A DNA stretch of 64,000 nt from Verrucomicrobiota bacterium (GTDB taxonomy: Bacteria; Verrucomicrobiota; Verrucomicrobiia; Limisphaerales; UBA11358), in assembly GCA_049511835.1 (NCBI GenBank), contig JBEKXN010000004.1, positions 81,231 through 145,230 of the forward strand. Direction: 5' to 3'. Under the pieces are notes generated by a model. It was not told where the DNA came from and ran no database searches. It saw nothing but the letters and a program-made list of their open reading frames with translations. How positions within the stretch are numbered: the first letter of the stretch is position 1; each line of letters opens with the position of its first letter. Below are positions 10,863-29,560 of this stretch, in pieces. The translations under genes were made by a program, and so were the position numbers.

Positions 10863-12521
10863 TTACTGCTTGCTGGCGCGGTAAAAGCGACACAGGTGGT
10901 TGCTGGTCTCCTGGTCCGTATAAAACAGCACATTAGTGGGCGCAGTGTTGGTAATTACCGGGGACCAACCCACCAGGTTCGTGGAGGCCTCAATCACCAC
11001 CGTCCCGGGTGAAGTCAGGTTCTCCAGCCAAATTTGGAAGGGACCATTGGTCAATTTGCAGTCGCTAAACATCGGCGTATAGGCGTATTTGATCGTGGCA
11101 ATGTCATAATAGCCTTCACTGCCAACCGAACCTCCCGTCACGATTACATAACCGCTTTGGTCAACCACCACGGCGGCGACCGTGTCCTCACTGTTCCCGG
11201 GCCCGTTGTAGCGGTTGGTCCAGAGCGGCACCCCCGCGCCCGAATACTTGATTGTCACGTAATCTTTATTGTAAGGAATAGGATAGTCTTGGCTGGTTGA
11301 ATACCCCGTCACCACCACGTTGTAATTGCCGTCCACCGCCACGGCGACGGCCTCGTCAGAAATGTTCAGCGGCCCGTCGTAGCGGTTGGTCCAGAGCGGC
11401 GTGCCCGCGCTCGAATACTTGATCGTCGCGTAATCTCGATTGTAAGGATAGACGTTTGTGCTGGCTGAAGACCCCGTCACGATCACGTTGTTGTTGCCGT
11501 CCACCGCCACAGCGTAGGCTTCATTGTCGTTTGCCGGTCCGTCGTAGCGGTTGGTCCAGAGCGGATACCCCCCGCTCCAATACTTGATCGTCGCGTAACT
11601 ACCCGACGAATTCCCCGTCACGATCACATTGTTGTTGCCGTCCACCGCCACGGCGCAGGCATCGTCATCGCCGTTCCCGGGTCCGTTGTAGCGGTTTATC
11701 CAGAGTGGCCACCCCCCGCTTGAATACTTGATCGTCGCGTAATCGAAATGGCCCCCCACGTCAGCCGACATCCCCGTGACGATTACGTTGTTGTCGCCAT
11801 CCACCGCCACAGCGGTAGCCATGTCAGTGCCGTTTGCCGGCCCGTTGTAGCGGTTGGTCCAGAGTGGCACCCCCGCGCTCGAATACTTGATTGTCGCGTA
11901 ATCGTGATTTCCGCTACCCCACGAATACCCCGTCACGATGACGTCGTTGTTGCCGTCCACCGCCACGGCGTAAGCCAATTCATTGCCGTTCCCCGATCCG
12001 TCGTAGCGGTTGGTCCAGATCGGCACCCCCGCGCTCGAATACTTGATTGTCACGTAATCGTCATTATTTCCGCTACCCAACGAAGTCCCCGTCACGATGA
12101 CGTCGTTGTTGCCGTCCACCGCCACGGCCTTGGCTTCATCGTCGTTTGCCGGTCCGTCGTAGCGGTTGGTCCAGATCGGCACCCCCGCGCTCGAATACTT
12201 GATTGTCACGTAATTTCCATAGTCAGGAGAGTCGTTTGGGATGGCTGAATCCCCCGTCACGCTCACGTTGTTGCTGCCGTTTCTCGACTGACTTGGAGGG
12301 GGAACGGCGAGGTCGCCTGCAAACCCTGTCACGATTACGTTGTTGCTGCCGTCCACCACCATGGCACGGGCAATAGCGCCGTTTCCCGGTTCGTGATAGC
12401 GTTGTACCCAGGCTTCAACGGCAGACTCGGCGCGCGTTGGCGTGGGAATGGACGACAGGAGTGATACCGACAACAGACACGAGGCCGTCAGCGTTAGCCC
12501 AATTCTTTCGGCAGTTTTCAT
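10863..12521 (-). CDS. SBBP (beta-propeller) repeat protein, secreted, with PVC-type C-terminal beta-sandwich domain
   Basis: Signal peptide. About 8 tandem units of Y(A/V)TIKYSSAGVPLWTNRY(D/N)GP...AVAVDGNNNVIVTG. The tail ends ...CRFYRASKQ. Confidence 0.8.
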   Translation of the reverse strand: MKTAERIGLTLTASCLLSVSLLSSIPTPTRAESAVEAWVQRYHEPGNGAIARAMVVDGSNNVIVTGFAGDLAVPPPSQSRNGSNNVSVTGDSAIPNDSPDYGNYVTIKYSSAGVPIWTNRYDGPANDDEAKAVAVDGNNDVIVTGTSLGSGNNDDYVTIKYSSAGVPIWTNRYDGSGNGNELAYAVAVDGNNDVIVTGYSWGSGNHDYATIKYSSAGVPLWTNRYNGPANGTDMATAVAVDGDNNVIVTGMSADVGGHFDYATIKYSSGGWPLWINRYNGPGNGDDDACAVAVDGNNNVIVTGNSSGSYATIKYWSGGYPLWTNRYDGPANDNEAYAVAVDGNNNVIVTGSSASTNVYPYNRDYATIKYSSAGTPLWTNRYDGPLNISDEAVAVAVDGNYNVVVTGYSTSQDYPIPYNKDYVTIKYSGAGVPLWTNRYNGPGNSEDTVAAVVVDQSGYVIVTGGSVGSEGYYDIATIKYAYTPMFSDCKLTNGPFQIWLENLTSPGTVVIEASTNLVGWSPVITNTAPTNVLFYTDQETSNHLCRFYRASKQ

Positions 12522-12729
12522 ATCATTGGCTTTCCAATGAGTCTTATGGCTTTTAGCGGCATCATTCCATTAAGTCAAGGAATAATTGCGTGTGATGGTC
12601 GGAAACGCGCACTCCCGTCACAGTGTTTTCGAGGCGGACGGCCGGGTAATTTGTCGCGACTTTGAAACGCGGGGCATCCTGAAATCGCTTTTCGCATTTG
12701 TACCGCCCAATTACTCTTCTGGAGAACTG

Positions 12730-12828
12730 ATGAACATTTCCATCATTCTCGCCCACGTGAATCCGGGCGGTTTCAATCATGCCATCGCCAACAGGGCGGC
12801 GGAAACGGCGCACTCGGCGGAGAATTGA
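12730..12828 (+). pseudogene. 5' fragment of a flavodoxin-like NAD(P)H dehydrogenase paralogue (copy of 28964..) fused to an ETF-QO-like tail
   Basis: MNISIILAHVNPGGFNHAIAN matches MNISIILAHPNPGSFNHAIAN at 28964. It then reads ...AHSAEN-stop, using the 17-nt gcactcggcggagaatt that also ends the ETF-QO gene. Confidence 0.7.
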
Positions 12829-12845: not shown

Positions 12846-15530
12846 TCACGTTGTTTGCGGGATTTCAGCATGGTCTTCGGCCAGACGTTTGAGGACGCTT
12901 ACGCGGCCGCGGTTTCCATCCACCTGCACCAGGTCGCCCGTGTGAATGACCCGCGTGGCCGAAGCCACGTTGGTCACCGCCGGAAGACCGTATTCGCGCG
13001 CGACGATGCTGCCGTGCGAGAGAATCCCGCCTTGTTCCATGACCACGCCGGCGGCAGTGATGAAATACGGCGACCACGCCGGATCGGTGAACGGGGCGAT
13101 GAGAATTTCGCCGGGGAGAACCTGCTGGTGCTCATCCGTGCGCAAAATCACGCGGGCGGGGCCGGTGACAATGCCGGGAGAAACCGGAATGCCTTCCAGA
13201 AGTTTCGCGCCGACGTTCGCCACCGGCCAGCCGGGCGCGTTTGGATCGAATCTTCCGATCACAACCGGCGGCGGGGTGAGCTTCAGGTTCTTTTCGTATT
13301 CCCGCCGGCGCAATTCGATGCGTTCGCGCCAATCGAACGAAGCGCTGCCCATCGCGACCGGTTCAATCTCGGAAATTTCCAGGAAGAAAATGTCATCGCG
13401 GCCGGACAAGCTGCCCTGCTCGTGGAGCCGCTGGCCGAGGGCCAGGAGAACGCGGCGCACGAAGGCAATCCGCCGGACGCCGAGGTTCTTCAAATGCTCC
13501 CGGAAGACGGCCAGTTCCTGCGCGCGGCGCAGCGAGCGCGAGAATATCCAGCGTTTGATTGGATTCTTCAGCCGCGCGCGGCATTGGACGGTCAAGCGTT
13601 CCCGTTCGTCCGCCAGCCGCCGTTGATTTTCCAGCGGGTTGGACTGGCCCAGCGAGCGAAGATAGCCGCGCACCAACCCCAGGATATAATCGGGGGTCTC
13701 GCTCCAACGGGCGTTGGACAGCTCCAGTTCGCCGCGGCAATGATGTCCGTGCTCGGCCATGAAGGCATCCCAGACGGCCAGGAATTTCCGGCCGTGTTCG
13801 GTGCAGCCAAGCCTGGCGCGGACCTCCGGCCAATTGTTTTCGGAAGACACAACGCCCTCTGTGTCGCTGTCGGCGTGGGCAAGTGCCGCCAGTCGCCAAA
13901 GAGCCAGGCCAGCTTCCGCGACCGGCAGGCCGCCCAACGCGGCAAACAAGCGCAGCGACACGCCGGGTTCGCCCAGCCAATTGCGGCAAACTTTCTGAAA
14001 CACCGGAAGCACCCCCGCCTGCACCGCCAGGTAGAGAACATCCGCGTCCTTGAAAACTTCCCGTACGTACTGACCGCAAAGCCGGGTCAGCTCCGGCGTG
14101 GACAGGGCTTCGAGGTCCAGGCGGTCGAGTTCGTCCGTTTGTTTCTTAAAGCGGGCCAGCCAGGCCCAGCCACGCCGGCGGGACGAGTGGGTGATGAGGT
14201 CGTAAGCGATGCGGGGCCAGGAGAGGATGTATTTCGGCCAGCGGAAACCCAGATCCGGAAGATCCTCCGGCGGGATGGACAACGGGGTCTGGTGGTAGGA
14301 CTCCACCAGGTCGCCTCCCAGTGTTCGGGTAAATTCAGGAAACCCCTTCCGCAGGAAAGCGAATGGTTTGACGGCGGCCACAAACGTGTTGGCGTTGAAG
14401 TAGAGCCGGCCGGCGACAAGATCCCCGACCAGCGAAACGCGCCGGATATCCGCGCCCACCAGACGAAAGATGGAACCGACCACCGTCAGCAAGGATTGCA
14501 GCATGGACCACGTCATCGGCGTCACCACGTCCGGCATCGCTTCACCCGTGTTGACGTTGGTCCAGATTTGCCGGTCCTCCCATGTTTTGACCGGAGCTTT
14601 GGTTGTGATCGGACGGGACTGCAACAGGAACAGTTTGCCATCCCACTGCGCCCACTCGATGTCCTGCGGCGAACCAAAGAGGCGTTCGGTCTGACGAGCC
14701 AGGTCGCACAGGTTTTTGAGAGTTGCGGACGAAAGCAACTCATTTTCGGGCGAAGCCAGCACGCGCCCCGTTCGCTTTTCAACCACCATCCGTTCGGGCT
14801 GAACTGTTCCCTGCACCAGTCCTTCGCCCAAACCGCTCACGCACTCCACGACGAACCGGTCCGTTGCTCCCGTCAGCGGATCGGCGGTGAACGCGACTCC
14901 GGCGTGGCCGGCCTCCACCATTTCCTGCACCACCACTGCCATCCTGGCCTTCTCCGCCGGCACCCGCTGCTTCGCCAGGTAAACGAGCGCCCGCTCGGAG
15001 AAAAGCGACAGCCAGCACGTCTTGATGGCAGCCAACAACGCGTCCTCTCCGCGCACATTCAGAATGGATTCAAACTGACCGGCAAAAGACATTCCGGCTG
15101 CGTCCTCGACGGTCGCGCTGGAACGCACGGCAAAGCTCCGTTCTTCACCCAGTTCCCGCCACGCGGACAGCACTGCATCCTTCACCATTTCCGGCACGGG
15201 AACCTCCGCCAGACAGAAGCGGACTTCCCGGCTCAGTTCAGCAATTTGCCCAAGTTCCTTGCCGGAACATTGCGCCAGCAGATGGGATAAATCAGTGCGC
15301 CTCGGACACGAAGCCAGGAAGAGATCGAACGCCGTCGTCGTGACACAAAAACCGCACGGCACCGGCTGACCCGCCGCGATCAATTTGCCCAGGTTAAACG
15401 CCTTGCCGCCCACCAGCGACCGGTGGTTGTCGCCAGTTTCCGCCAAGCGAAGCACGAACACAGCGGTTTTGTCTGTTGCCGCCAGCACCGCCATGCTCCC
15501 CTCAGAATGGGTTGAAGATATCTTTTTCAT
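12846..15530 (-). CDS. PEP-utilising phosphotransferase, three-domain PpsA/rifampicin-phosphotransferase-like architecture
   Basis: N-terminal ATP-grasp motif GGKAFNLGKLIAAGQPVPCGFCVTT. Long central domain. C-terminal swivel-His domain ...GGILSHGSIVAREYGLPAV. The start MKKISS at 15530 overlaps the upstream stop (ATGA). Confidence 0.75.
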   Translation of the reverse strand: MKKISSTHSEGSMAVLAATDKTAVFVLRLAETGDNHRSLVGGKAFNLGKLIAAGQPVPCGFCVTTTAFDLFLASCPRRTDLSHLLAQCSGKELGQIAELSREVRFCLAEVPVPEMVKDAVLSAWRELGEERSFAVRSSATVEDAAGMSFAGQFESILNVRGEDALLAAIKTCWLSLFSERALVYLAKQRVPAEKARMAVVVQEMVEAGHAGVAFTADPLTGATDRFVVECVSGLGEGLVQGTVQPERMVVEKRTGRVLASPENELLSSATLKNLCDLARQTERLFGSPQDIEWAQWDGKLFLLQSRPITTKAPVKTWEDRQIWTNVNTGEAMPDVVTPMTWSMLQSLLTVVGSIFRLVGADIRRVSLVGDLVAGRLYFNANTFVAAVKPFAFLRKGFPEFTRTLGGDLVESYHQTPLSIPPEDLPDLGFRWPKYILSWPRIAYDLITHSSRRRGWAWLARFKKQTDELDRLDLEALSTPELTRLCGQYVREVFKDADVLYLAVQAGVLPVFQKVCRNWLGEPGVSLRLFAALGGLPVAEAGLALWRLAALAHADSDTEGVVSSENNWPEVRARLGCTEHGRKFLAVWDAFMAEHGHHCRGELELSNARWSETPDYILGLVRGYLRSLGQSNPLENQRRLADERERLTVQCRARLKNPIKRWIFSRSLRRAQELAVFREHLKNLGVRRIAFVRRVLLALGQRLHEQGSLSGRDDIFFLEISEIEPVAMGSASFDWRERIELRRREYEKNLKLTPPPVVIGRFDPNAPGWPVANVGAKLLEGIPVSPGIVTGPARVILRTDEHQQVLPGEILIAPFTDPAWSPYFITAAGVVMEQGGILSHGSIVAREYGLPAVTNVASATRVIHTGDLVQVDGNRGRVSVLKRLAEDHAEIPQTT

Positions 15531-17695
15531 TTCACGGGCTGGAAGTCTTTGTGGCCCGTCTGCCACAGGAGGAATGCGTACTGGTCCGCGAAATTCTTGA
15601 AGGTGACAACCTTCTCCTCCGTGAAGTGGCCGTTGTCGTAGTTCACCTTCATCAGGACGGGCTTTCCCGAGGCCGTTGCCGCCTGCAAGGCAGCCACGAA
15701 CTTGCCAGGTTGCCAGGCTGGGCATCGGGGATCGTTCCAGCCACCCACACCCATAACCGCAGGGTAATTTACACCCTTCTGGACGTGCTGGACTCCGTCC
15801 ATCTCGAACAGAGCCTGGCACTCAACGGGATCTTTCACTGTGCCAAATTCCGGCGTGTCGCCCGCACCAAAGGGCCGGAACTCATGACGCATCGCATTCG
15901 CGACCCCGACATTGCAAACTGCGGCAGCAAATAAATCCGGGCGTTCCGTGATAGCACGGCAGATCAGGATTCCGCCAGCACTGGTGCCAGTAACTGCGAG
16001 CTTCCGGGGACTGGTATATCCCTTTTTCACAAGGTACTCCGCGCAGGAAATGAAGTCCTTCCATGTGTTCGGTTTGGTAGTCTTGTAGCCGGCTTTGTAC
16101 CAAGCCCCGCCCTTTTCGCCGCCGCCCCTTACGTGCGCAAAAGCAAACACCACACCTCGGGCTGCCAGTAAGTTAACGCGAATGTTGAAGTAGGGGGTAT
16201 AACTAAACCCGTAAGCGCCATAGCCAGTAAGGATGCAGCTGTTTGACCCATCCAACGGAATACCCTTCTTGTAAATGATGGAGAGCGGAATCATTGTGCC
16301 ATCGTGCCCGGGCACTTCAACTTCTTTGGAGACTAGGTTCTCGAAGCCTGGATACGACATGTCCGTGTTGAAAATGCTCTTCGCGAAGGTGTCCTTCTGC
16401 GCATCAAAATCATAGATCGTCAGGGGTGAAGTCCAGGAGGTGATATACACCAGACAACGATCCGTTTTCCAATCCGGACAACTGACGTCCACGGTCCCGG
16501 ACGCCGGAAGTTTGATTTCTGCGATCTTGCCGGTGGTTAGGTCGTATTTGATGAGACGGCCTACAATCCCATCTGAATAAACGACGAGGAGATAGTGCTT
16601 GCTCTTGGTAATGGATTGGATGGAGTCAGCCCCCTCGGGAATCACGGTCTCGGCGTGTTCCCAGTCAGGGTGCTTCACGCTCGTCCGAACAACCTTATAC
16701 TTTGGCGCACCTGCATGGGTGACGGCGTAAACGTAATCCCCGTAGAATTCAAACCCTCGATATTCAGACCCTCGATACACCAGATTATCTGAGGGTTTAC
16801 ACAGGACATCCCATTTGATTTTCTTGTGCTTCAGTTCGGAGGTGGGAGCATAGAAAATCCGCATCTCCCACTGCGAGGTCTCCACTCTCCCGATGATGTA
16901 GTCAGGGTAGGATTCATCAATGAAAGCAACGGGCCTCTCCTTTGCCGTGATCCCCAGTTCAGGGTTGCTCTCATCGCTGAAGATATCTCTGTCCATGGCA
17001 GTTTCGGTGCCAAGTTTATGCACTTTGGTTTTGCGGTTCAGTAGGACATCGGGGCTCTTGATGTCAGCGACCTTGCCGAAGTCATAGAAAAACGACTTGC
17101 TGTCCTTCGTCCACCCCAAGGCTGCAAAGGAGGGATAAATACGTTCGGGCAACAGCGTTCCCCGTTCCACGTCCAAAACACGGATTTCTGAATACTCAGC
17201 GCCACCCGAGGAAAACCCCATGGCGACGTATTTCCCGTCCCACGAGGGGAGGAAGGAATGGATGGTTGTTGTCACACCAGCCTTGTATGTAGCTGGATCG
17301 AAGAGCAGTTTTTCAGCACCATCCCATCCCTCGCGGAAGTAGAGCTTGCCCACGTTTTCGCCACCCAAAGTCTTCTTGTAAAAGACCCGGCCATTTTCAC
17401 ACATGATTGTCGAGTAAACCACAGGTTCGAGCTTGTCCAACGCCATCCATTCCTTCGCGAGGGCATCCCTGCCGGGAATCTTCGCCAGCAGGTCGTCGGT
17501 CAATTCCGCCTGAGCCTTGAACCAGGCTTCGACCTCCTTGTCTTTTAGGTCCTCCAACCAGCGGTAAGGATCGTTGTAAGTCTTCCCAAAGTAGGTGTCG
17601 GATGCATCGACGGTTTTTGTCGGCGGATAGTTCCACTGGGCAAAGCATGGCATGGCAGCCAAGACTGGGAGGACGAGGAAAAGAAATCTTTTCAT
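15527..17695 (-). CDS. prolyl oligopeptidase (S9A), secreted
   Basis: Signal peptide MKRFLFLVLPVLAAMPCFA. YFGKTYNDPYRWLED. GTSAGGIL is the GxSxG nucleophile motif. Confidence 0.85.
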   Translation of the reverse strand: MKRFLFLVLPVLAAMPCFAQWNYPPTKTVDASDTYFGKTYNDPYRWLEDLKDKEVEAWFKAQAELTDDLLAKIPGRDALAKEWMALDKLEPVVYSTIMCENGRVFYKKTLGGENVGKLYFREGWDGAEKLLFDPATYKAGVTTTIHSFLPSWDGKYVAMGFSSGGAEYSEIRVLDVERGTLLPERIYPSFAALGWTKDSKSFFYDFGKVADIKSPDVLLNRKTKVHKLGTETAMDRDIFSDESNPELGITAKERPVAFIDESYPDYIIGRVETSQWEMRIFYAPTSELKHKKIKWDVLCKPSDNLVYRGSEYRGFEFYGDYVYAVTHAGAPKYKVVRTSVKHPDWEHAETVIPEGADSIQSITKSKHYLLVVYSDGIVGRLIKYDLTTGKIAEIKLPASGTVDVSCPDWKTDRCLVYITSWTSPLTIYDFDAQKDTFAKSIFNTDMSYPGFENLVSKEVEVPGHDGTMIPLSIIYKKGIPLDGSNSCILTGYGAYGFSYTPYFNIRVNLLAARGVVFAFAHVRGGGEKGGAWYKAGYKTTKPNTWKDFISCAEYLVKKGYTSPRKLAVTGTSAGGILICRAITERPDLFAAAVCNVGVANAMRHEFRPFGAGDTPEFGTVKDPVECQALFEMDGVQHVQKGVNYPAVMGVGGWNDPRCPAWQPGKFVAALQAATASGKPVLMKVNYDNGHFTEEKVVTFKNFADQYAFLLWQTGHKDFQPVK

Positions 17696-17811
17696 AATGG
17701 GAAGCTCCAATGAATTATTGATCGGAATGTGCTTTTAATGTTCCGCGAACATGGGTGATTCGGTCTGGTTAACAGGAAGGTAAAACAAATGATGCGGATG
17801 GTAGTTTTCAT
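17692..17811 (-). pseudogene. 39-codon remnant of a fourth hydrolase paralogue (signal-peptide stub), bridging two cistrons
   Basis: MKTTIRIICFTFLL matches the paralogue N-termini MKTAIRAICFTLLL and MTTAIRVLCFMILL, then diverges. ATGA overlaps at both ends. Confidence 0.5.
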
Positions 17812-19583
17812 TTTAGTTTCTTTCCCTCGTGATTTAACCCCGTAATACTGCGGACTACCGCCGTCACTTCTCCCTGGCCATTCTTGATGAAGGTGTATCG
17901 CATGTGATTGATCTTGCAGAAAAAGTTCGTTTCCGATTCGGGATACATATCGAAGGCGCCCTCGAGAACGTTCTCGCCCCAGGCTTGCCCGAACAACTGG
18001 TCTCCCTGCCGCCAGATCGTCAGTTTGATTCCCGTGGGATACGCGGCGTCCGGCGCGACTTCGTAATGGCCGACACAGGCGTCAAGAAGTTTTGGGGCCA
18101 GCTTGATGGCAACAGGCCGTTTCAGCGGTTCGGGGGCTTTGGGCGGCTGATCGGAGATTTTCTCATAATAAAACTCTCTGCCCTGGAAGTGCACGGTTAA
18201 GCCGGTCACCTTGCCTCGTGTATCCCGGGAAAAGGTCATGGGTATGCCGCTCAACCTTTCAAAAAAACGATTTTCCGATTCCGGCAATAATTCGATGGTG
18301 AGAGGCGGTAATAATACATCAACCGGCCACGATCTTGATCCTGTGGCCTGGGCGAAGAGCCGGTCCCCTTCACGGCAAATACCGATGCCGGATGGGATCA
18401 TATTACTCGACACGAGCGCAACATCAGGTGGACGCTGGTATTGTCCGAGATACGAACCATAAACTTTGTTGCTGATTTTGGTTTCCTTGGGCCGATGGTC
18501 CGACTGCCATTCGCTTTCGAGTAACAAGAGGCCCAAGCCGTAAACGACATCCCAATCTTCCGTGTTAGCCAAGACCACCACGCCGCGCCGCCGGGCCTTG
18601 TCGAAACCGATGAACGTGCGAAAACCGCCCGTACCTCCGGTTTTCCAGATGATTTGTGTCCCATGCAGGTCGGAAATATACCAAGCCAACCCAATGTCAG
18701 TGTCCGGCTCTAAACGAAAGTGCGCGACCTGTGTTTTTTCCATGAGCGGTGTCAGAGTGGATGGCGTCAGGCCGAGGTTGGCAGACACGTATTTGAGCTG
18801 GTCATGGGCCGTCGAGCACAGCGCACCACAGCCCGCCAAGACCCCAAATTCCATAACCGGGACCGCGTAGTTGAGTTCAGAGTGTCCCTGTGCAAACCGC
18901 GCTTTCATTCCGGGCGTCAAAGTGATCCGCGTGCTGTCCATCTTTAGTGGCCGGCAAATCCGATCCACCACGAGCGACTCGTAGTTCGTCCCGGCTTTCA
19001 GCGCAATGACATGACCGAGCAATCCCATTCCTAGGTTGGAATATTGATATTTCGCGCCCGGATCACGGGTCAATCTGTAGCCGGACAGGAAGGCATACAA
19101 CTTTTCGACGGAATAATCAGCATAGGGGCTATCCGCGCTTTTGGTGTCAACGTTGTCAGGATTGTCTGGCAGCCCGGAGGTGTGCGTCGCCAGTTGAAGC
19201 AAGGTGATTTCCTTGCCGTTGCGGGTTGGCATCCTGACCGACTTGGGCAAATACCTGGCCACGGGATCATCCAGCTTCATCTCCCCGCGCTCAATCATGT
19301 CTTGCAGCAACAGCGCGGTAAATGTCTTCGTGACCGAACCGATCTCAAACACGGTACTGCCATTCACTGCCTGATCGGTCCCGTTATCCAGTTTTCCGCA
19401 ACTGACAATGCTGCTGCCATGCTCGTCCACAATGCCGACCACTATGCCGACGTCACGCTTTTCAAGCTCGACGCGCTGTTGCAGGTAAGCGTGGATGGCA
19501 TTGGTGAAATCCTCCGCCGCAGCACGGAATGAAGATGCCGATAACAATATCATGAAACAAAGGACTCGGATGGCAGTGGTCAT
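17808..19583 (-). CDS. beta-lactamase-fold serine hydrolase (class C/EstB-like) with two C-terminal DUF3471-like modules
   Basis: Signal peptide. The SVTK (SxxK), YSN and KTG motifs are all present. C-terminal module LDACVGHYEVAP...LTIWRQGDQLFGQ...PESETNFF...GEVTAVV. Confidence 0.8.
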   Translation of the reverse strand: MTTAIRVLCFMILLSASSFRAAAEDFTNAIHAYLQQRVELEKRDVGIVVGIVDEHGSSIVSCGKLDNGTDQAVNGSTVFEIGSVTKTFTALLLQDMIERGEMKLDDPVARYLPKSVRMPTRNGKEITLLQLATHTSGLPDNPDNVDTKSADSPYADYSVEKLYAFLSGYRLTRDPGAKYQYSNLGMGLLGHVIALKAGTNYESLVVDRICRPLKMDSTRITLTPGMKARFAQGHSELNYAVPVMEFGVLAGCGALCSTAHDQLKYVSANLGLTPSTLTPLMEKTQVAHFRLEPDTDIGLAWYISDLHGTQIIWKTGGTGGFRTFIGFDKARRRGVVVLANTEDWDVVYGLGLLLLESEWQSDHRPKETKISNKVYGSYLGQYQRPPDVALVSSNMIPSGIGICREGDRLFAQATGSRSWPVDVLLPPLTIELLPESENRFFERLSGIPMTFSRDTRGKVTGLTVHFQGREFYYEKISDQPPKAPEPLKRPVAIKLAPKLLDACVGHYEVAPDAAYPTGIKLTIWRQGDQLFGQAWGENVLEGAFDMYPESETNFFCKINHMRYTFIKNGQGEVTAVVRSITGLNHEGKKLK

Positions 19584-20791
19584 TTTAGTTTCTTTCCCTC
19601 GCTATCCGGAACCCCCGCTTGAGAGGAATGGTGGATGACAGCCGTCACTTCTCCCTTGTCATTCTTGATGAAGGTCAATTGCGCGCCATCGATTTTGAGG
19701 AAGAAATTCGTTTCCGATTCGGGATAAATATGAAACGCACCTTTGAGGGTGTTCTCGCCCCAGACTTGTCCGACCAACTGATCTCCTTCCCGCCAGATCG
19801 TCACCTTCCCTACAGTGGGAGACATGGCGTTCGGCGCAAATTCGTAGTGCCCGACACAGGCATCAAGAAGTTTTGCGTCCAGCTTGATGGCAACATGCGA
19901 TTTGGCTGGTGCAGAATCCGGGACGCTGGCACTGGCCGGGAGTGGCACTTTCGGTTCTTTGCCCAGATAGCCGATGCGGCACAGAAACTCATCAACCTCC
20001 TCCGTTGTTATTCCCAGCCAGGGCGGCTGATTGAAGAAGCCGTGCGATTCCCCTTCTGTGAAGCAGGCCTCGACCGGTGCGCCCAGGGATTTGCTCTTCT
20101 GGACAAACTCGCGGATCTCATAGTTAAACTGATCTTCCGTGCCATCGATGAACAATGTGGGAGGCGCTTTTTTGCAGACATGAAAGAAAGGGGAAATCCG
20201 CTTCAGCATCGCGTCGTCCATGCCGGTGAGGGGGTTGTCGGCACCACCGCCGCGCAACGCGATCAGGTTCAGGTCGGGGTTGTAGAGAACCATCGCATTG
20301 GGCTTGGGAGAGACGGATTTGTCGTCGTCCGGAGCGTTGATCCCCTCGGCGAAAAAGGTGCAGGCCGCGAGATGCCCCCCTGCCGAACCGCCCGAAGCCA
20401 CGATACGGTTGGGATCGATGCCGAGCTGGGCAGCATGGCTGCGGACCCAGCGCATGGCGCTGATGGCGTCTTCGACGCATTTGTCGAGCTTGACGCCGTC
20501 CTTGGCGTGGGTACGGCGATCGGCACGGGCACAGACCAAGCCACGCTTGGCGAAGTATTCGGCCTGAGGCTTGAACTGGTCAAGCGTGCCGCCTCCACCA
20601 GAAAAGAAAACAATGGCCGGGTGCTTATCGGCTGGCTTCCAGTCGGGCGGGTAGTCGAGGTCGAGCGTCAGCTTCCGTTCGCCGACGGTCTTATAGACAT
20701 ATTGCGCCTGTGGTTTGGCCTCCGCCGAAGCGCGAAAGGAAAACGCCGATAACAGTATCGTGAAACAAATTACTCGGACGGCAGTGGTCAT
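19580..20791 (-). CDS. alpha/beta-hydrolase (esterase/lipase-type) fused to one DUF3471-like module
   Basis: The signal peptide resembles those of the neighbours. IVFFSGGGG oxyanion region and GGSAGGHLA nucleophile elbow. The C-terminal module resembles those of the flanking genes. Confidence 0.75.
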   Translation of the reverse strand: MTTAVRVICFTILLSAFSFRASAEAKPQAQYVYKTVGERKLTLDLDYPPDWKPADKHPAIVFFSGGGGTLDQFKPQAEYFAKRGLVCARADRRTHAKDGVKLDKCVEDAISAMRWVRSHAAQLGIDPNRIVASGGSAGGHLAACTFFAEGINAPDDDKSVSPKPNAMVLYNPDLNLIALRGGGADNPLTGMDDAMLKRISPFFHVCKKAPPTLFIDGTEDQFNYEIREFVQKSKSLGAPVEACFTEGESHGFFNQPPWLGITTEEVDEFLCRIGYLGKEPKVPLPASASVPDSAPAKSHVAIKLDAKLLDACVGHYEFAPNAMSPTVGKVTIWREGDQLVGQVWGENTLKGAFHIYPESETNFFLKIDGAQLTFIKNDKGEVTAVIHHSSQAGVPDSEGKKLK

Positions 20792-22758
20792 TTTAGTTTC
20801 TTTCCCTCGAGATCTGGAAACCCCGCTCCATGGTCGATCGCCGCCGTCACTTCTCCTTCTTTATTCTTGATGAAGATGAATTGCTCATCAGCGATTTTGA
20901 GGAAGAAATTCGTTTCCGATTCGGGATAAATATCGAAAGCGCCTTGGCCGACGTTCTTGCCCCAGCATTGCGAGACCAACTGATCTTCTTCCCGCCGGAT
21001 CGTCAGTTTCATTCCAGTGGGAAACATGGCGTTCGGCGCAAATTCGTAGTGGCCGACGACGGCATCAAGAAGTTTTGTGTCCAGCTTGATGAGGACGGGA
21101 CGTTTCGGTGGTTCGGGAGCTTTTGGTGGTTCATCGGAGATTTTCTCGTAAAAAAACACCTTCTCGCGGTAGTGCAGCGTCAAGCCGGTCACCTTGCCCC
21201 GGGCATCCCGGGAAAAGGTCATGGGCACGCCGCTCAACCTTTCAAAGAGACAGTTTTCCGATTCCGGCAACAATTCCGCCTGGACAAGCGGAAATAATAC
21301 ATCAATCGGATTTGATTGTGATCCCCACGCTTGCAAGAACCTCCAATCCTCAATCGGACATAAGTTCAATCCTGTGGCTTGGGCGAAGAGCCGATCCCCT
21401 TCGCGGTGAATGCCGATGCCGGGCTGAAAACGCGCGCAAAATACACGACTCGACACTAGAGCAAGGAGCGGGGCCAAAAGACCACAGACCAGGACCACGC
21501 AACCCAAGATGACCCATCGCTTGCGGAAACTGCCAGCACGCCAGAGGAGGATCACCAGCGCCGCGAGGCAGAAAGCCGCCGGGAGAAAGATGGCCGTTTT
21601 GGGAGCGTTGCGGAGATACTGCCGCATAACGAACATTCCCAGTGTAAAATCAGGTGACCGTCGGTATTGTCCTACATACGAACCGTAAACCTGACTGTTA
21701 ATGTTGGTCTTCGTTGGCCGTCGGTCCGATTGCCATTCGCTTTCAAGTAGAAGATTGCCCAACTCGCGCCCTGAATCGTCCGCAGTGGACAAGATTACCA
21801 CGCCGCGACGCCGCGTCTTGTCGAAACAGGCATACGATCTGCCGCCGAACCCCCCTCCGCCGGTATGGATCATTCCCTCTATCTCCGGAGCATAACTGAG
21901 GTTAGTCATGCTTTTTTCCATGAGCGGTGTCAGACCTGACGGAGTCAGGCCGAGGGCCGACACGAATTTCAGCAGGTCATTGGCTGTTGAGTGCAGCCCG
22001 GCAAAGGGTTTCATAGCTCCCCAATCCCAACTCGGTCTCGCATAGCCGAACTCATTGTGTTCGCTGGCGAGCCGAGATTTCAGTTCGCCAGTCAGAGTGA
22101 ACCGGGCGCTATCCATCTTCAATGGCCGGAAAATCCGGTCCACCATGAGAGATTCGAAATCCGTCCCGGCTTTCAGCGCCATGGCCTGGCTCAGCAATCC
22201 CAGGTCCACGCCGCCATGATAATGCTTCGTTCCCGGGTCATTGGTCAATTGGCAGCCGGACACGAAGGCATACATTTTCTCGACGGTAAAATCAGCAAAG
22301 GGATTATCCGCGCGTTTAGGGTCAAGTTTGCCAATTAAGTTTGGAAGCCCGGAGGTTTCCTTCACCAGGTGGCGCAAGGTGATTTCCTTGCCATGGTAGG
22401 TCGGCATTTTGACAGACTTGGGCAAATAGCCGGCCACGGGATCATCCAGCTTCATTTCTCCACGCTCAACCATGTCTAGCAGCAACAAGTGGGTAAATGT
22501 GCCTGTCGCGGAATGAACATTGAACAGTGTGTCGCCATTCGCTTCCCGGTCGGTGCCATTATCCAATTTCCCAAAACTGACAATGCTGCTGCCATGCTCG
22601 TCCACAATGCCGACCACGATGCAGCCGTTTATCTTTTCAGCCTCGACGCGCTGTTGCAGATACGCGTGGATGGCATTGGTGAAATCCTCCGCCGCAGCGC
22701 GAAAGGGAAACGCCGATAACAACAGCGTGAAACAAATGGCTCGGATGGCAGTTTTCAT
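20788..22758 (-). CDS. beta-lactamase-fold paralogue with degenerate catalytic motifs and an internal two-helix membrane insertion
   Basis: Collinear with 17808..19583, but SVTK becomes SATG, YSN becomes HGG and KTG becomes HTG. An extra hydrophobic segment, TAIFLPAAFCLAALVILLW...WVILGCVVLVCGLLAPLLALV, is present. Confidence 0.7.
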   Translation of the reverse strand: MKTAIRAICFTLLLSAFPFRAAAEDFTNAIHAYLQQRVEAEKINGCIVVGIVDEHGSSIVSFGKLDNGTDREANGDTLFNVHSATGTFTHLLLLDMVERGEMKLDDPVAGYLPKSVKMPTYHGKEITLRHLVKETSGLPNLIGKLDPKRADNPFADFTVEKMYAFVSGCQLTNDPGTKHYHGGVDLGLLSQAMALKAGTDFESLMVDRIFRPLKMDSARFTLTGELKSRLASEHNEFGYARPSWDWGAMKPFAGLHSTANDLLKFVSALGLTPSGLTPLMEKSMTNLSYAPEIEGMIHTGGGGFGGRSYACFDKTRRRGVVILSTADDSGRELGNLLLESEWQSDRRPTKTNINSQVYGSYVGQYRRSPDFTLGMFVMRQYLRNAPKTAIFLPAAFCLAALVILLWRAGSFRKRWVILGCVVLVCGLLAPLLALVSSRVFCARFQPGIGIHREGDRLFAQATGLNLCPIEDWRFLQAWGSQSNPIDVLFPLVQAELLPESENCLFERLSGVPMTFSRDARGKVTGLTLHYREKVFFYEKISDEPPKAPEPPKRPVLIKLDTKLLDAVVGHYEFAPNAMFPTGMKLTIRREEDQLVSQCWGKNVGQGAFDIYPESETNFFLKIADEQFIFIKNKEGEVTAAIDHGAGFPDLEGKKLK

Positions 22759-24668
22759 TTCAGTTTCTTTTCCTCGATTTCCTCCTTGGGTAGAGGGCCG
22801 GACAGCGTGACGCTCTGACCGATGGCCGGAATTTTGAAGGGTTGGTAGGGCTGGTAGCCTCGCGTTTGCCAGTCGAACCGGAGCCAGTGGAAATCGGGCG
22901 AATCCAGCGAGGTGTCGAACCGGAATGCAACGCGGGACGGCAAATCCGATGCATCCGATTCCAGGACTTCCACCGTGAGGCCGTCGAGGTCATACCGGTC
23001 GCCTTTTTTGCATCTGGGTCCGCCCACGAGCAGGTTTAAAGTCCTGCAGGCGTAGGCGCTATGGATCGGACCAACATTGTCGCAGAAGAATATGTCCGGC
23101 GCTTTGGATTGAATCACCAGCGTTTTGTCATCGGTCCGCTGGACGTCGAAGCTCGTGCCAGCCGGTACCAGCGCCCGCAAGGTCTTGGGCAGCGGCTGGT
23201 GGTGATACGCTTTGTAAGCAGGTGCATGAACCAACGCGAGCGGCAAGGCGTTGATAATGATCACATTTTCGTTCTCGATGTTTGGCCAATCACCGAGATC
23301 ACTGAGTAAGCACATCCGGTTGAAAAGGAGAGGGGCAACTTTAACTACTGCGACTCTTCCGGCGGCCGCTCCCGGAACATGCGCCAGAATCAGCAGCACG
23401 CAGGCAATCCATGCCGGGATTCGGTAGGCCAACGCTTTCGGCAACCGACTCGGCCGGGTGATCAGGCCGGCGACAAAACTGGCGATCAATCCATAAGCTC
23501 CGACGGCCACAAAGCCAAGGTTCTTGCTGACTGGCACTACCGTGGACGCAGGGATGGCCGCCAGCACCATGATCGCGAACCAGAACGCGGCCGTTTTGTC
23601 CCGGCGCACCCACGGGAGGAAAACCACCAAAGCCGCGACCACGGTCACGCAAAAAAGCGCCGCGACCCTCTGCCGCAATAGAGGATTGAGTGCGCACAAA
23701 ACATCCGGCGCCACGCCGGTAAGTTGGCCGCCAAGCAGAACCATCGCCCGGGGAATCAACACCCGCCCAAACTCAAGCGGATCGTTGGCAGGGTCAGTGT
23801 AAAGGCCCATCTGAAACACACCAAAGCCGGAAAGTGTATAGATGGTCCGCCACAGAACGATCACCAGAATCGCAGGCAAAATCGTCAGCGCCCGGTGGCG
23901 AAGAGAACCCGGCTCGCGCACCAGCGCATACGCGAAGATGAAGGCCAACGTGGAAGCTCCGCCTTCATCCGTGAGAAGCGAAAGCGCGAGGAACACGGCG
24001 GACAACACCAATCCGGAACGGGACTTTGCGGAACGCCATTGATGATGTTCATAAAGACACAGCAGGCCGAAGAATAATGATAGCATGAAGCCGCGGTTTG
24101 CGACGAACGCCACCGGGAAGTAGGTGTTGACATCGAGCAGGAACAACAGCGCCGCGAATCCCGCGACCCATCCCGCTCCCATCAGCTTCCGGTAAACAAT
24201 CGTGATGAGAAACACGATGGCCGCGAACCAGGCGATGTTGTGGGCGTGCATCAGCATGGGCGAGTCGGGAAAAAGCCGGTAATCAAGCCAGTGGGTGAAG
24301 GCGGCGAGCGGCCGCCAAAGGGCAAATCTGAAATTGTCCGGCGTCCACCACGGCAGCGTGCCGTAACTTTTCATCAACGCCATGCATTGCGGATCTCGGC
24401 TGAAGCCGAAAAGGTCGCAGAGCACGGTCCCGAGACTGCCGGAATCCGCAGGGTTGCCCGTCTCGTGCATTCGCGGCGGCAATTGGCTGGGCTTGAGTTC
24501 GACGGCCCGCTGCATCAGATCGTCCACCGCCAAGTCGATCTTCAAGGCGGGCAACATGACCAGTATCGCCCCAATTGCCAGAATCGCTGGAAGGTGGCGA
24601 TGCTCAAGAAGTTTTTTCAAGAACCCCAGCATCTTGGCTCCTATTCCATTCGTTTTCATCGTTTCCAT
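22755..24668 (-). CDS. polytopic inner-membrane protein with C-terminal soluble domain (possible GT-C/ArnT-PMT-like glycosyltransferase)
   Basis: More than 10 hydrophobic helices. An acidic DD pair lies in the first loop (KIDLAVDDLMQ). A soluble tail of roughly 200 aa follows. The family assignment is tentative. Confidence 0.35.
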   Translation of the reverse strand: METMKTNGIGAKMLGFLKKLLEHRHLPAILAIGAILVMLPALKIDLAVDDLMQRAVELKPSQLPPRMHETGNPADSGSLGTVLCDLFGFSRDPQCMALMKSYGTLPWWTPDNFRFALWRPLAAFTHWLDYRLFPDSPMLMHAHNIAWFAAIVFLITIVYRKLMGAGWVAGFAALLFLLDVNTYFPVAFVANRGFMLSLFFGLLCLYEHHQWRSAKSRSGLVLSAVFLALSLLTDEGGASTLAFIFAYALVREPGSLRHRALTILPAILVIVLWRTIYTLSGFGVFQMGLYTDPANDPLEFGRVLIPRAMVLLGGQLTGVAPDVLCALNPLLRQRVAALFCVTVVAALVVFLPWVRRDKTAAFWFAIMVLAAIPASTVVPVSKNLGFVAVGAYGLIASFVAGLITRPSRLPKALAYRIPAWIACVLLILAHVPGAAAGRVAVVKVAPLLFNRMCLLSDLGDWPNIENENVIIINALPLALVHAPAYKAYHHQPLPKTLRALVPAGTSFDVQRTDDKTLVIQSKAPDIFFCDNVGPIHSAYACRTLNLLVGGPRCKKGDRYDLDGLTVEVLESDASDLPSRVAFRFDTSLDSPDFHWLRFDWQTRGYQPYQPFKIPAIGQSVTLSGPLPKEEIEEKKLK

Positions 24669-24856: not shown

Positions 24857-24946
24857 TTGTCAGCAGGCACAGGCTGGACAATTCCCGGCGACCCGGACCA
24901 GACGAACATTGCCGGCAGGGGCGGCCTGCACTCGGCGGAGAACTAG
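24857..24946 (+). pseudogene. remnant copy of the ETF-QO 3' end
   Basis: Translates as ...PGDPDQTNIAGRGGLHSAEN-stop, compared with the ETF-QO tail LPDNPERTNIAFRAGTGGLHSAEN-stop. A 23-nt identical core lies at 24920-24942 and 10794-10816. Confidence 0.65.
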
Positions 24947-26766: not shown

Positions 26767-26882
26767 TTAATAGCCGGAGGTTGTGAACGGATCCCGGCAA
26801 CTGACAATTTTTGCGCTGCCGGCAGGTTTTAATCTTCTTCAACCCTGCGACCTTGCCTTTTTTTGCATATTTCGCCCGTCCT

Positions 26883-26938
26883 CCATAGCGGCATTGCGGA
26901 GGGTGGACGTGTTTGGCGGTTTGCCTTTGTCCGTCCGG
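26883..26938 (+). repeat. conserved upstream module, copy 1 (ends 55 nt before the uxuA ATG)
   Basis: ...gcggagggtggacgtgtttggcggtttgcctttgtccgtccgg is near-identical to 28862-28909. Confidence 0.6.
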
Positions 26939-26992
26939 GTTGAAAACATAAATTTGCCGAGCCGGCAAACTTGTGATTTTGTATGGACTGAG

Positions 26993-28832: not shown

Positions 28833-28861
28833 TCGGGAGCCAGCATCCGTCCTTCCTGGCG

Positions 28862-28909
28862 GCATAGCGGAGGGTGGACGTGTTTGGCGGCTTGCGTTTG
28901 TCCATCCGG
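28862..28909 (+). repeat. conserved upstream module, copy 2 (ends 55 nt before the ATG at 28964)
   Basis: catagcggagggtggacgtgtttggcggcttgcgtttgtccatccgg. Confidence 0.6.
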
Positions 28910-28963
28910 ACTGAAATCGCTTTTCGATCACGGCATTGGCCAATTACACTGCGCAACTAATTG

Positions 28964-29560
28964 ATGAATATTTCCATCATCCTTGCGCACCCGAATCCGG
29001 GCAGCTTCAACCACGCCATCGCCAACACGGCGGCGGACACGCTTCGCCGGAACGGCCATCAAGTCATCCTTCACGACCTCTGCCAGGAACAATTTCCACC
29101 GCTGCTTTCCGCGGCGGAACTCCGGAAGGACGCCAAGCTCGATCCGTTTGTGGCCCGGCACTGCAATGAAATCACCAAGGCCGACGGCATCATCATCGTG
29201 CATCCGAACTGGTGGGGCATGCCGCCGGCCATCCTCAAAGGCTGGATTGACCGTGTGCTCCGGCCCGAAGTGGCGTATCGCTTTATCGAAGGCGACAAGG
29301 GCGAAGGCGTGCCCGTCGGCTTGCTGAAAGCGAAGGCAGCGATTATTTTCAACACCGCTAACACGACTGAGGCGCGCGAGCGGAAAGTATTCGGTGACCC
29401 GCTGGAAACGCTCTGGGAAAATTGCGTGTTCGACTTGTGCGGTGTGAAGAACGTCCATCGCTGGACGTTCGCCGTGGTCGTCACCAGCACGCGACAGCAG
29501 CGAGCCAAATGGCTGGCTGAGGTGCGGGAGATTGTCGCCCAGCGCTTTCCCGTCGGATGA
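28964..29560 (+). CDS. flavodoxin-like fold NAD(P)H dehydrogenase (quinone) family protein
   Basis: MNISIILAHPNPGSFNHAIA and IIIVHPNWWGMPPAILKGWIDRV (Flavodoxin_2 pattern). Confidence 0.75.
   Translation: MNISIILAHPNPGSFNHAIANTAADTLRRNGHQVILHDLCQEQFPPLLSAAELRKDAKLDPFVARHCNEITKADGIIIVHPNWWGMPPAILKGWIDRVLRPEVAYRFIEGDKGEGVPVGLLKAKAAIIFNTANTTEARERKVFGDPLETLWENCVFDLCGVKNVHRWTFAVVVTSTRQQRAKWLAEVREIVAQRFPVG

Follow-up and report, generated by a model that had tools for sequence, protein, structure and literature searches.

A 22-nt sequence recurs at four gene borders of a single operon in the window, a 64,000-nt stretch of DNA from a Verrucomicrobiota bacterium. It is most probably the 3' end of secreted hydrolase genes that carry a DUF3471 domain; tandem duplication would have copied this end, and an unrelated membrane protein gene, A, would have captured one of the copies. 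The initial annotation had proposed a portable coupling module rather than simple paralogy. Its rejection of simple paralogy holds for the copy on gene A, which is a capture, but the other three copies (J2-J4) are explained by paralogy of the DUF3471 end together with the next signal peptide. What looks like a regulatory cassette at cistron borders can prove to be a protein domain's conserved end, repeated along an array of tandem paralogues, and a false lead is cleared. In Verrucomicrobiota of peat and soil, the locus also shows a variable slot of exported hydrolases with a conserved gene on either side. Its features are as follows.

22755..24668, minus strand: gene A, first in the overlapped operon; polytopic membrane protein of 637 aa whose C-terminal domain is beta-rich
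22758..22793, minus strand: twelve-codon extension LPKEEIEEKKLK on gene A, at the left edge of the 7.26-kb block
22755..22776, minus strand: J1, variant 22-mer, end of gene A and start of hydrolase gene B
20788..22758, minus strand: gene B, signal peptide, beta-lactamase-fold domain, inserted hydrophobic hairpin, DUF3471, tail
20841..21140, minus strand: DUF3471 domain repeat in B
20788..20809, minus strand: J2, exact 22-mer, end of B and start of C
19580..20791, minus strand: gene C, signal peptide, alpha/beta-hydrolase (BD-FAE / Abhydrolase_3) domain, DUF3471, tail
19639..19938, minus strand: DUF3471 domain repeat in C
19580..19601, minus strand: J3, exact 22-mer, end of C and start of D
17808..19583, minus strand: gene D, signal peptide, AmpH/class-C-like beta-lactamase-fold serine hydrolase domain, DUF3471, tail
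17858..18157, minus strand: DUF3471 domain repeat in D
17808..17829, minus strand: J4, exact 22-mer, end of D and start of the 39-codon stub
17692..17811, minus strand: 39-codon stub, the opening 14 codons of a signal peptide from a paralogue, joined to a 25-codon piece
15527..17695, minus strand: prolyl oligopeptidase (S9; POP) gene, ATGA overlaps at both ends, both without the cassette
12846..15530, minus strand: PEP-utilising (PPDK_N / Rph-like) gene, conserved right flank of the variable slot
15531..22792, minus strand: 7.26-kb block (tail, B, C, D, stub, POP), absent from the syntenic relative L138

Copies and extent of the junction repeat

Three copies of the 22-mer are identical (CGAGGGAAAGAAACTAAAATGA, J2-J4) and the fourth, CGAGGAAAAGAAACTGAAATGA at J1, has two mismatches. 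All four end an ORF in ...E(G/E)KKLK*, with the TGA overlapping the ATG of the next ORF (ATGA). The four sites and the shared tail described in the initial annotation were thus borne out, and its four cistron boundaries are present as junctions, but the "cistron" that begins at 17811, after J4, is only the 39-codon stub. The TGA of the stub overlaps the ATG of the POP gene. With a tolerance of up to 3 mismatches the window had 4 matches; the expectation from 100 shuffles was 0.00. A genome-wide search, also suggested at the outset, was run on the whole 3.8-Mb genome (95% complete) with 2 mismatches allowed, and returned the four operon copies and none besides. Since no copy lies at an unrelated locus in the 3.8 Mb searched, a dispersed element (REP/MITE/attC-like) was ruled out. 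The operon resembles integron gene cassettes (attC) in its promoterless genes of the same orientation, its recurring short spacer sequence, and a gene content that varies between relatives. Unlike attC, the repeat belongs to the coding part of the gene before it, it has no genomic dispersal, and no inverted repeat or stable hairpin was found in the cassette. No integrase was seen among the window ORFs examined.

The 22-mer does not stand by itself. A 64-nt repeat present in four copies (17770-17833, 19542-19605, 20750-20813 and 22717-22780) has it as its core, and at J2-J4 it also sits inside a longer repeat, of at least about 400 nt, in which ~300 nt of DUF3471 domain is followed by the 22-mer and then by ~65 nt of signal peptide. 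The repeat families comprised D1 (300 nt, three copies), D6 (109 nt, three copies) and D7 (64 nt, four copies), and the three DUF3471 domain repeats are 74-79% identical. Comparison of J2-J4 with one another gave 79-84% identity over ~250 nt of the upstream domain, 22/22 in the cassette and 62-87% in the signal peptide. The corresponding values for J1 are 35% (random level), 20/22 and 82%. In a test for tandem paralogy, homology therefore continued from the repeat into the coding sequence on either side at J2-J4, and only downstream of the cassette at J1. The earlier description of A as otherwise unrelated to the hydrolases agrees with this, as A upstream of the cassette is at the random level and has neither a Pfam nor an NCBIfam match.

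Tandem paralogue arrays with unequal crossing-over offer a close parallel. They share with this locus head-to-tail paralogues, a truncated terminal copy (here the stub), and a copy number that varies between close relatives; there are 3 hydrolase genes in the window, 0 in relative L140 and 2 in relative L065. The locus differs in that the unit repeated here crosses from one gene into the next, so that conservation lies at the junction and the catalytic domains are of two kinds (beta-lactamase fold and alpha/beta hydrolase), and in that an unrelated upstream gene has gained the last codons of the unit. We propose that genes B, C, D and a fourth present only as a stub, lying head to tail, would make the DUF3471 end, the ATGA and the opening of the signal peptide behind it recur within a long paralogous repeat. 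This repeat would have arisen by duplication and unequal crossing-over, and selection at the protein level would keep it intact.

The tail as the end of the DUF3471 domain

Genes B, C and D scored 40.1, 30.7 and 41.0 bits, respectively, against Pfam DUF3471 (PF11954), above the gathering cut-off of 29.3. The protein-level Pfam scan is the valid test here; a six-frame HMM search of the genome itself for DUF3471 gave sub-threshold matches only. The Pfam match ends at position 86-89 of the 103-position model; 15 protein residues remain, and the tail runs colinear with the stretch of the model left unaligned. Across 25 related loci, 28 homologous tails that are not identical to one another end in ...PDxEGKKL(K) whatever gene comes next, and dozens of Verrucomicrobiota MAGs conserve the ...EGKKLK tail irrespective of the gene behind it. 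Homologues that are 41-44% identical, from Kiritimatiellae, Chthoniobacteraceae and Acidobacteriota, place ...ATKIK* or ...AKKLK* in the same alignment columns. An AlphaFold2 model of the domain (pLDDT 85.5, last block 93) put S-E-G-K-K in the final strand, residues 111-115 of 117. By colinearity with the model end, conservation in distant members and predicted structure, the tail falls within the DUF3471 domain. The alignments identify EGKKLK as the native C-terminus of DUF3471 hydrolases, and the tail is the predicted last beta strand of a lipocalin-like DUF3471 barrel. The first 18 nt of the 22-mer encode E-G-K-K-L-K, this predicted last strand, and the last 4 nt (ATGA) supply the stop and the next start.

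The best PDB fold matches were the barrel domains of beta-lactamase-fold peptidases (8FEK, 9SN1, 1EI5) and lipocalins, and these Foldseek matches are weak (E 3e-3 to 2.5e-2, TM 0.53-0.60). D-aminopeptidase DAP (1EI5), Ulm16 (8FEK) and Lip3 (9SN1) are similar in having a serine-hydrolase domain followed by an eight-stranded barrel, and the tail is modelled as the last strand of such a barrel in domains that pass the Pfam cut-off. A difference, apart from the weakness of the matches, is that DUF3471 here is also joined to an alpha/beta-hydrolase, in gene C. The catalytic SxxK motif of gene B reads SATG; the SVTK and YSN motifs of gene D are intact. A literature search on DUF3471 found no paper, and we know of no function for this domain.

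Capture of a tail by a membrane protein

The extension LPKEEIEEKKLK is missing from the paralogue of A, from most orthologues and from L138. The native end of A-type proteins, ...SGP(H/Q)R*, was found in 9 orthologues from related genomes, in the paralogue on contig C12 and in most of 120 database homologues. Even the closest relatives of A, 95-96% identical in the C-terminal domain, have no tail. The tail of A is homologous to the hydrolase tails (20/22 nt), and for this one copy the initial annotation was right to set simple paralogy aside. Judged from these comparisons, the fourth copy is a real capture of a hydrolase 3' end by A. A rearrangement would have put the hydrolase/peptidase block directly behind A, with its left breakpoint in frame and ~8-12 codons short of the 3' end of a DUF3471 gene. 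A would then read through the captured codons and terminate exactly on the ATG of the first hydrolase.

Two relatives bear on the history of the block. L138 is syntenic, with 88-91% nucleotide identity; it keeps the native A end, and its PEP-utilising gene starts 25 nt after A. L140 has a tailed A, then a 69-codon version of the stub, then POP, and it is without B, C and D. The order of events at A rests on parsimony and could be insertion in the lineage of the window, or deletion in L138 with its native end restored; that end is common to the paralogues as well as to L138.

All of the intact A-family tails examined (7/7) overlap the downstream ORF by 4 nt. Among native short ends 0/10 overlap a conserved gene, and 1/10 overlaps a probably spurious 92-codon ORF. 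The A-family tails keep E-x-K-K-L, and the Gly position alone varies freely. We infer that the captured tail persists on A because the ATGA overlap is kept. When a block of genes moves, codons from the end of the gene that used to precede it can go along and become attached to an unrelated protein at the new site. Short C-terminal tails common to different proteins can arise simply in this way, and annotators could take them for sorting signals.

AlphaFold2 gave a poor model of whole A (pLDDT 57), with a tail pLDDT below 50, so disorder of the tail is weakly supported. The tail has no predicted structural role on A, and more than inertia may keep it there.

Coupling at ATGA overlaps and the rival readings

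An ATGA stop/start overlap occurs at all 6 junctions of the seven-ORF operon, from gene A to the PEP-utilising gene, and 2/6 junctions (stub to POP, POP to the PEP-utilising gene) lack the cassette. The genome has about 220 ATGA overlaps, and the cassette is at none of the other ~216. The hydrolase genes that stand first in their operons in relatives G011 and G012 have AT-rich leaders with no cassette upstream, and X-to-X junctions in relatives end in another tail, ...GRKNNV*. On these two grounds the cassette was ruled out as the leader of the downstream gene; on the sequences compared, it travels with the upstream DUF3471 gene and not with the downstream gene. A scan of the operon for promoters and terminators gave counts no higher than shuffles, hence no evidence for internal signals. 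Strict coupling with a variable SD contribution has been described at ATGA overlaps (Huber et al. 2019, PMC6728339). The operon shares with that system co-directional genes, a 4-nt overlap and a purine-rich tract inside the upstream gene, and by analogy its ATGA overlaps may well couple termination to reinitiation as a generic mechanism. In tightly overlapped operons the ribosome-restart context of a gene sits inside its upstream neighbour. The differences are that the SD-like core lies 13 nt from the start in a genome with weak SD use, and that the repeat is explained by domain conservation and paralogy rather than by coupling.

The initial annotation placed an SD-like block about 10 nt upstream of the next ATG. 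This distance suits the 3' end of the 7-mer GAGGGAA, but the GAGG core is at -17..-14, which leaves the 13-nt spacer. The 16S rRNA of the genome ends ...CACCUCCUUU. An SD-like tetramer of any kind is present at 24% of the ATGA overlaps in the genome, and the GGAG/GAGG excess is small and peaks at -12..-8. The cassette GAGG falls outside this weak peak, and an SD role for the cassette is therefore doubtful. In relatives with NE or NLSE extensions the same tract is 19-29 nt from the ATG. No conserved RNA structure was detected at the cassette (fold z-scores -0.8 to +1.6), which is mostly unpaired, and Rfam gave no match to it at E<=1. Synonymous codon conservation in the tail (GGA 78%, AAG 97%, AAA 94%, Leu 53%) does not exceed that of the other positions conserved in the domain, and so gives no specific signal of an RNA-level constraint.

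These results bear on a reading that we consider distinctly unlikely, in which the purine-rich core of the tail plus ATGA is an RNA-level adaptor, itself selected and reused between unrelated gene pairs, perhaps also serving as a crossover point for swaps of the downstream gene. In its favour, A-family proteins in several metagenomes carry the core …[DE][IVF]E.KKLK… only with a 4-nt overlap of a downstream ORF. The partners of tailed A proteins are of four kinds (signal-peptide hydrolase or its stub, ABHD18-like hydrolase, second A paralogue), and degenerate A tails accompany lost or decayed partners (G011, L145). The A tails share PPxEDIE upstream of the core while their 3' sides vary with the partner (KLK* versus KLKNE*), which would fit crossovers within the core, and the arrays of the window and L140 differ in content with breakpoints within the junction/signal-peptide repeat. 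Its difficulties are the confinement of all 4 copies to one operon, the cassette-free overlaps of that same operon, the other tail of X-to-X junctions, the distance of the GAGG and of the tract in relatives from the start, and the results on synonymous sites and RNA structure. Furthermore, both edges of the 7.26-kb difference from L138 are at gene borders beside the conserved A and PEP-utilising genes, and exchange through flanking homology would explain that difference without the cassette. An unlikely but broader proposal is that the last 8-12 codons of DUF3471 hydrolases form a reusable junction adaptor in this Verrucomicrobiota genus, grafted onto an unrelated membrane-protein family. It would be retained there (E-x-K-K-L, always ATGA) to set termination on the start of whatever exported-hydrolase gene fills the slot behind the membrane protein, and the same junction repeat of ~25-110 nt would be the crossover site at which those genes are swapped, added or removed.

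The remaining readings concern the peptide and the identity of the copies. The initial annotation had stated that its module would be refuted if KKLK proved a conserved functional peptide signal. This came out in part, as DUF3471 proteins of different phyla conserve the KKLK peptide, which is the predicted last beta strand of the domain; E.KKL is also kept in the A-family tails. That it is a C-terminal sorting, retention or recognition tag common to the exported hydrolases and the membrane protein of one pathway is very improbable. The hydrolase tail is confidently predicted as an integral barrel strand and not a free tail, and the paralogue and closest relatives of A lack it. Many homologues have 1-5 extra residues after the tail (KLKN*, KLKNLSE*) and one continues for 17, which makes a strictly C-terminal tag unlikely. 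We likewise give very little credence to recent gene conversion among tandem copies, rather than selection, as the source of the perfect identity of three 22-mers, even though tandem paralogues are typical conversion substrates. The 22-mer is 22/22 in all three pairs, the domain ~80% and the linker just upstream only 40-60% identical, and extra constraint or conversion at the junction is possible on this account. A 22-nt conversion tract bounded by divergent linker would be unusually short, however, and TATCCCGAATCGGAAACGAA and other blocks of the DUF3471 domain are as invariant as the 22-mer. The nucleotides GAG GGA AAG AAA CTN AAA are kept in ~30 junctions of other genomes, so purifying selection on the domain suffices.

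The repeated 22-mer and its operon

The genes of the operon, from the membrane-protein gene (A) through the PEP-utilising gene, are listed here.

22755-24668, minus strand: A, polytopic membrane protein of 637 aa, matching nothing in Pfam or NCBIfam
20788-22758, minus strand: B, beta-lactamase fold plus DUF3471
19580-20791, minus strand: C, alpha/beta hydrolase plus DUF3471
17808-19583, minus strand: D, beta-lactamase fold plus DUF3471
17692-17811, minus strand: stub of 39 codons
15527-17695, minus strand: prolyl oligopeptidase (POP)
12846-15530, minus strand: PEP-utilising gene (PPDK_N/Rph-like)

ATGA overlaps were found at 6/6 junctions in this series, the final two without the cassette, a repeated 22-mer (CGAGGGAAAGAAACTAAAATGA). 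The initial annotation placed the cassette at four gene boundaries, which was borne out by three exact copies (17808-17829, 19580-19601 and 20788-20809) and a two-mismatch variant (22755-22776) on the minus strand. No copies are expected by chance. Every copy is the end of an ORF encoding ...E(G/E)KKLK, and the TGA of the copy overlaps the following ORF at its ATG. Beyond these four, 0 copies were found in the genome of the window (G000, a 3.8-Mb, 95%-complete Verrucomicrobiota MAG).

Longer repeats, of which the 22-mer is the core, emerged on comparison. The 64-nt family (4 copies) joins the cassette to the initial 42 nt of the signal peptide, and a 109-nt family and a 300-nt DUF3471 family have 3 copies each. 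Identity was then tabulated by segment.

Segment identities at the cassette junctions (J1, A/B; J2, B/C; J3, C/D; J4, D/stub)
J2-J4, pairwise: upstream domain 79-84%; linker 40-60%; cassette 22/22; signal peptide 62-87%
J1 versus the others: upstream domain ~35% (random); linker random; cassette 20/22; signal peptide ~82%

These identities assign three cassette copies to paralogy and one not. The view that the cassette is more than simple paralogy is therefore lost for three copies, where homology runs into the flanks, and kept for the J1 copy, where upstream identity is random.

In gene B (20788-22758) SATG stands in place of the catalytic SxxK, and there is no YxN motif. A ~65-residue hydrophobic insert (two helices) separates its catalytic domain from DUF3471. 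B-type orthologues of 650-676 aa in other MAGs have the insert and some retain SxxK (FEIGSFTK, FEIGSVTK), which argues that the insert is old and the loss of the active site specific to the B of the window.

The tail as the end of DUF3471

Hydrolase genes of related MAGs (Limisphaerales/Verrucomicrobiia, peat and soil) end ...(L/V)PDxEGKKLK plus 0-5 residues. The tail is kept irrespective of the 3' neighbour, be it a signal-peptide hydrolase, an ABHD18-like hydrolase starting MIAPLAK (X), an acyltransferase-like gene, short decayed ORFs, or nothing. In a 39-sequence alignment it shares columns with the ...ATKIK* and ...AKKLK* ends of 41-44%-identity homologues from Kiritimatiellae, Chthoniobacteraceae and Acidobacteriota. 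AlphaFold2 on this alignment predicted a helix and eight strands (pLDDT 85.5), with S-E-G-K-K as the last strand of the DUF3471 model (final block pLDDT 93). The top PDB matches of the model, all with weak E-values, were barrel domains of beta-lactamase-fold peptidases (8FEK, 9SN1, 1EI5), then lipocalins. Alignment and model together indicate that the tail belongs to the DUF3471 domain. The alternative offered in the initial annotation, that the KKLK tail is a conserved functional peptide signal, holds insofar as the tail is conserved across phyla and modelled as a strand; a signal role is unlikely.

The cassette was also considered as the leader of the downstream gene. This was ruled out using first-in-operon hydrolase genes (G011:C3, G011:C4, G012), whose AT-rich leaders contain neither cassette nor SD. 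The cassette is therefore the end of the upstream gene, not the leader of the downstream one.

Relatives contain tandem arrays of X, at L074 6327-9333 (three copies) and L060 9409-10377. X-X junctions are ATGA overlaps with a distinct family-specific tail (...GRKNNV* / ...RRENNT*), and at such junctions each family retains its own gene end. A ~25-nt conserved sequence, TGAATGATTTTGGCCGCCGGCAAG, lies just 3' of the stop of many hydrolase genes (L066-L072, L080-L085) and starts only short non-conserved ORFs (MILAAGK...). Its resemblance, with indels, to the beginning of X (ATGATCGCGCCTTTGGCCAAA) makes a decayed X start the probable origin. A D-type hydrolase at L060 7475-9412 (G022) and L074 4393-6330 starts MKTA|TEDLTNAIH. 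An in-frame deletion has removed the hydrophobic core of its signal peptide, and export of this copy is therefore improbable.

Capture of the tail by the membrane protein

The ending ...IGQSVTLSGP(H/Q)R*, or one like it, occurs in nine A orthologues from related genomes and in the contig C12 paralogue. Most of 120 database homologues of A share this short end, among them the two closest, whose C-terminal domains are 95-96% identical to that of A. A minority of the 120 carry a 12-14-residue extension, xxx[DE][IVF]E[G/E/R/L]KKLK(NE).

State of the A gene end and the gene that follows
Window: with tail; B (signal-peptide hydrolase), 4-nt overlap
L140: with tail; 69-codon stub, 4-nt overlap
L141, L144, L146, G026: with tail; X, 4-nt overlap
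L142: with tail; second A paralogue, 4-nt overlap
G011, L145: degenerate tail; partner decayed or none
Ten copies with native short end: no conserved gene overlapping; in L029 one probably spurious 92-codon ORF overlaps

Since paralogues have both the native short end and the 3' flank that goes with it (CGCTGACGCTG...), the tailed state is more parsimoniously taken as derived, and the cassette copy on A reads as capture of a hydrolase tail. In A, residues G, E, L and R all occur at the Gly position of the tail, the free variation expected of a strand that is no longer part of a barrel. E, KK and L are retained, which may reflect limited divergence or modest constraint at the junction. The AlphaFold2 model of A was poor (pLDDT 57; tail below 50).

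Syntenic locus L138 (88-91% nt identity to the window) contains A with its native end, a 25-nt spacer and the PEP-utilising gene; window 15531-22792 is absent. In L140 (85-87% identity) A carries the tail and is followed by a stub and POP, and B, C and D are absent. The window stub equals the L140 stub minus ~85 nt, deleted between two GTTA microhomologies. The analysis as a whole shows a tandem DUF3471 hydrolase array with a structural tail and ATGA overlaps, and capture of the tail by A with a presence/absence block.

The second A paralogue of G000 (78% identical) lies at C12:33530-35437 (L027), in the order rpoZ, smpB, rpmB, A, DUF1015 gene. The same locus in L142 has two tandem A genes whose junction consists of the tail, ATGA and four initial codons of X (MIAP), which suggests an internal deletion of X.

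Proposed coupling and turnover of the array

The 16S rRNA of G000 has the canonical CCUCC tail (anti-SD). Before the starts of ~2,500 long ORFs, GGAG/GAGG/AGGA are in excess by a few percent only, with a maximum at -12..-8. The SD-like block described near the next ATG is present as GAGG, but at -17..-14 it falls outside this maximum. Genome-wide, SD-like motifs before starts are marginally enriched and leaders mildly A-rich despite the canonical anti-SD; G000 is a weak-SD genome. An SD-like tetramer accompanies 24% of its 220 ATGA overlaps, and only the four cassette junctions have KKLK ends. Major-codon fractions in the tail (GGA 0.78, AAG 0.97, AAA 0.94, Leu 0.53) are typical for conserved positions across the whole domain. 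No consistent RNA fold and no Rfam match were found, and across the operon promoter- and terminator-like sites were no more frequent than in shuffled controls. In relatives ending KLKNE* or KLKNLSE* the same tract (GAGGGAAAGAAAC) lies 19-29 nt before the restart codon.

In published work ATGA overlaps give strict coupling, with an SD contribution ranging from none to essential (PMC6728339). The simplest reading would be generic termination-reinitiation at the overlap, with perhaps a small contribution from the tract as an SD or A-rich element. We consider it unlikely that the cassette is a portable coupling module, as first proposed. In its favor, the tail is grafted on an unrelated protein family, A, in correlation with the presence of a coupled partner, and this is the sole unusual feature of the locus. 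However, the whole-genome search for the 22-mer returned no copy elsewhere, which is not the behavior of a dispersed portable element. The locus fits two familiar categories, operon junctions coupled through ATGA and arrays of tandem paralogues with a common C-terminal domain. The captured in-frame tail would persist by holding termination of A on the next start codon. Unequal crossing-over in the junction/signal-peptide repeat would change array length (window versus L140 versus L065), and the variable block may be swapped through homology in its conserved flanks, A and the PEP-utilising gene.

Other repeats occur in the region. The 3' end of the ETF-QO gene is present as two direct copies of 35 nt, 91% identical, at 10785-10819 and 24911-24945, which flank ~14 kb that includes the entire A-to-PEP-utilising operon; several short copies of this segment were also seen in BLAST of L138 against the window. 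Two-copy direct repeats of 83 nt (84% identity; 12725-12807 and 28959-29041) and 70 nt (87% identity; 26876-26945 and 28847-28916) connect the region just beyond the operon with loci 2-16 kb off. Downstream of the operon, several tandem repeat families (~137-160 nt, 5-8 copies, 61-89% identical) at 11119-12361 all lie within one gene.
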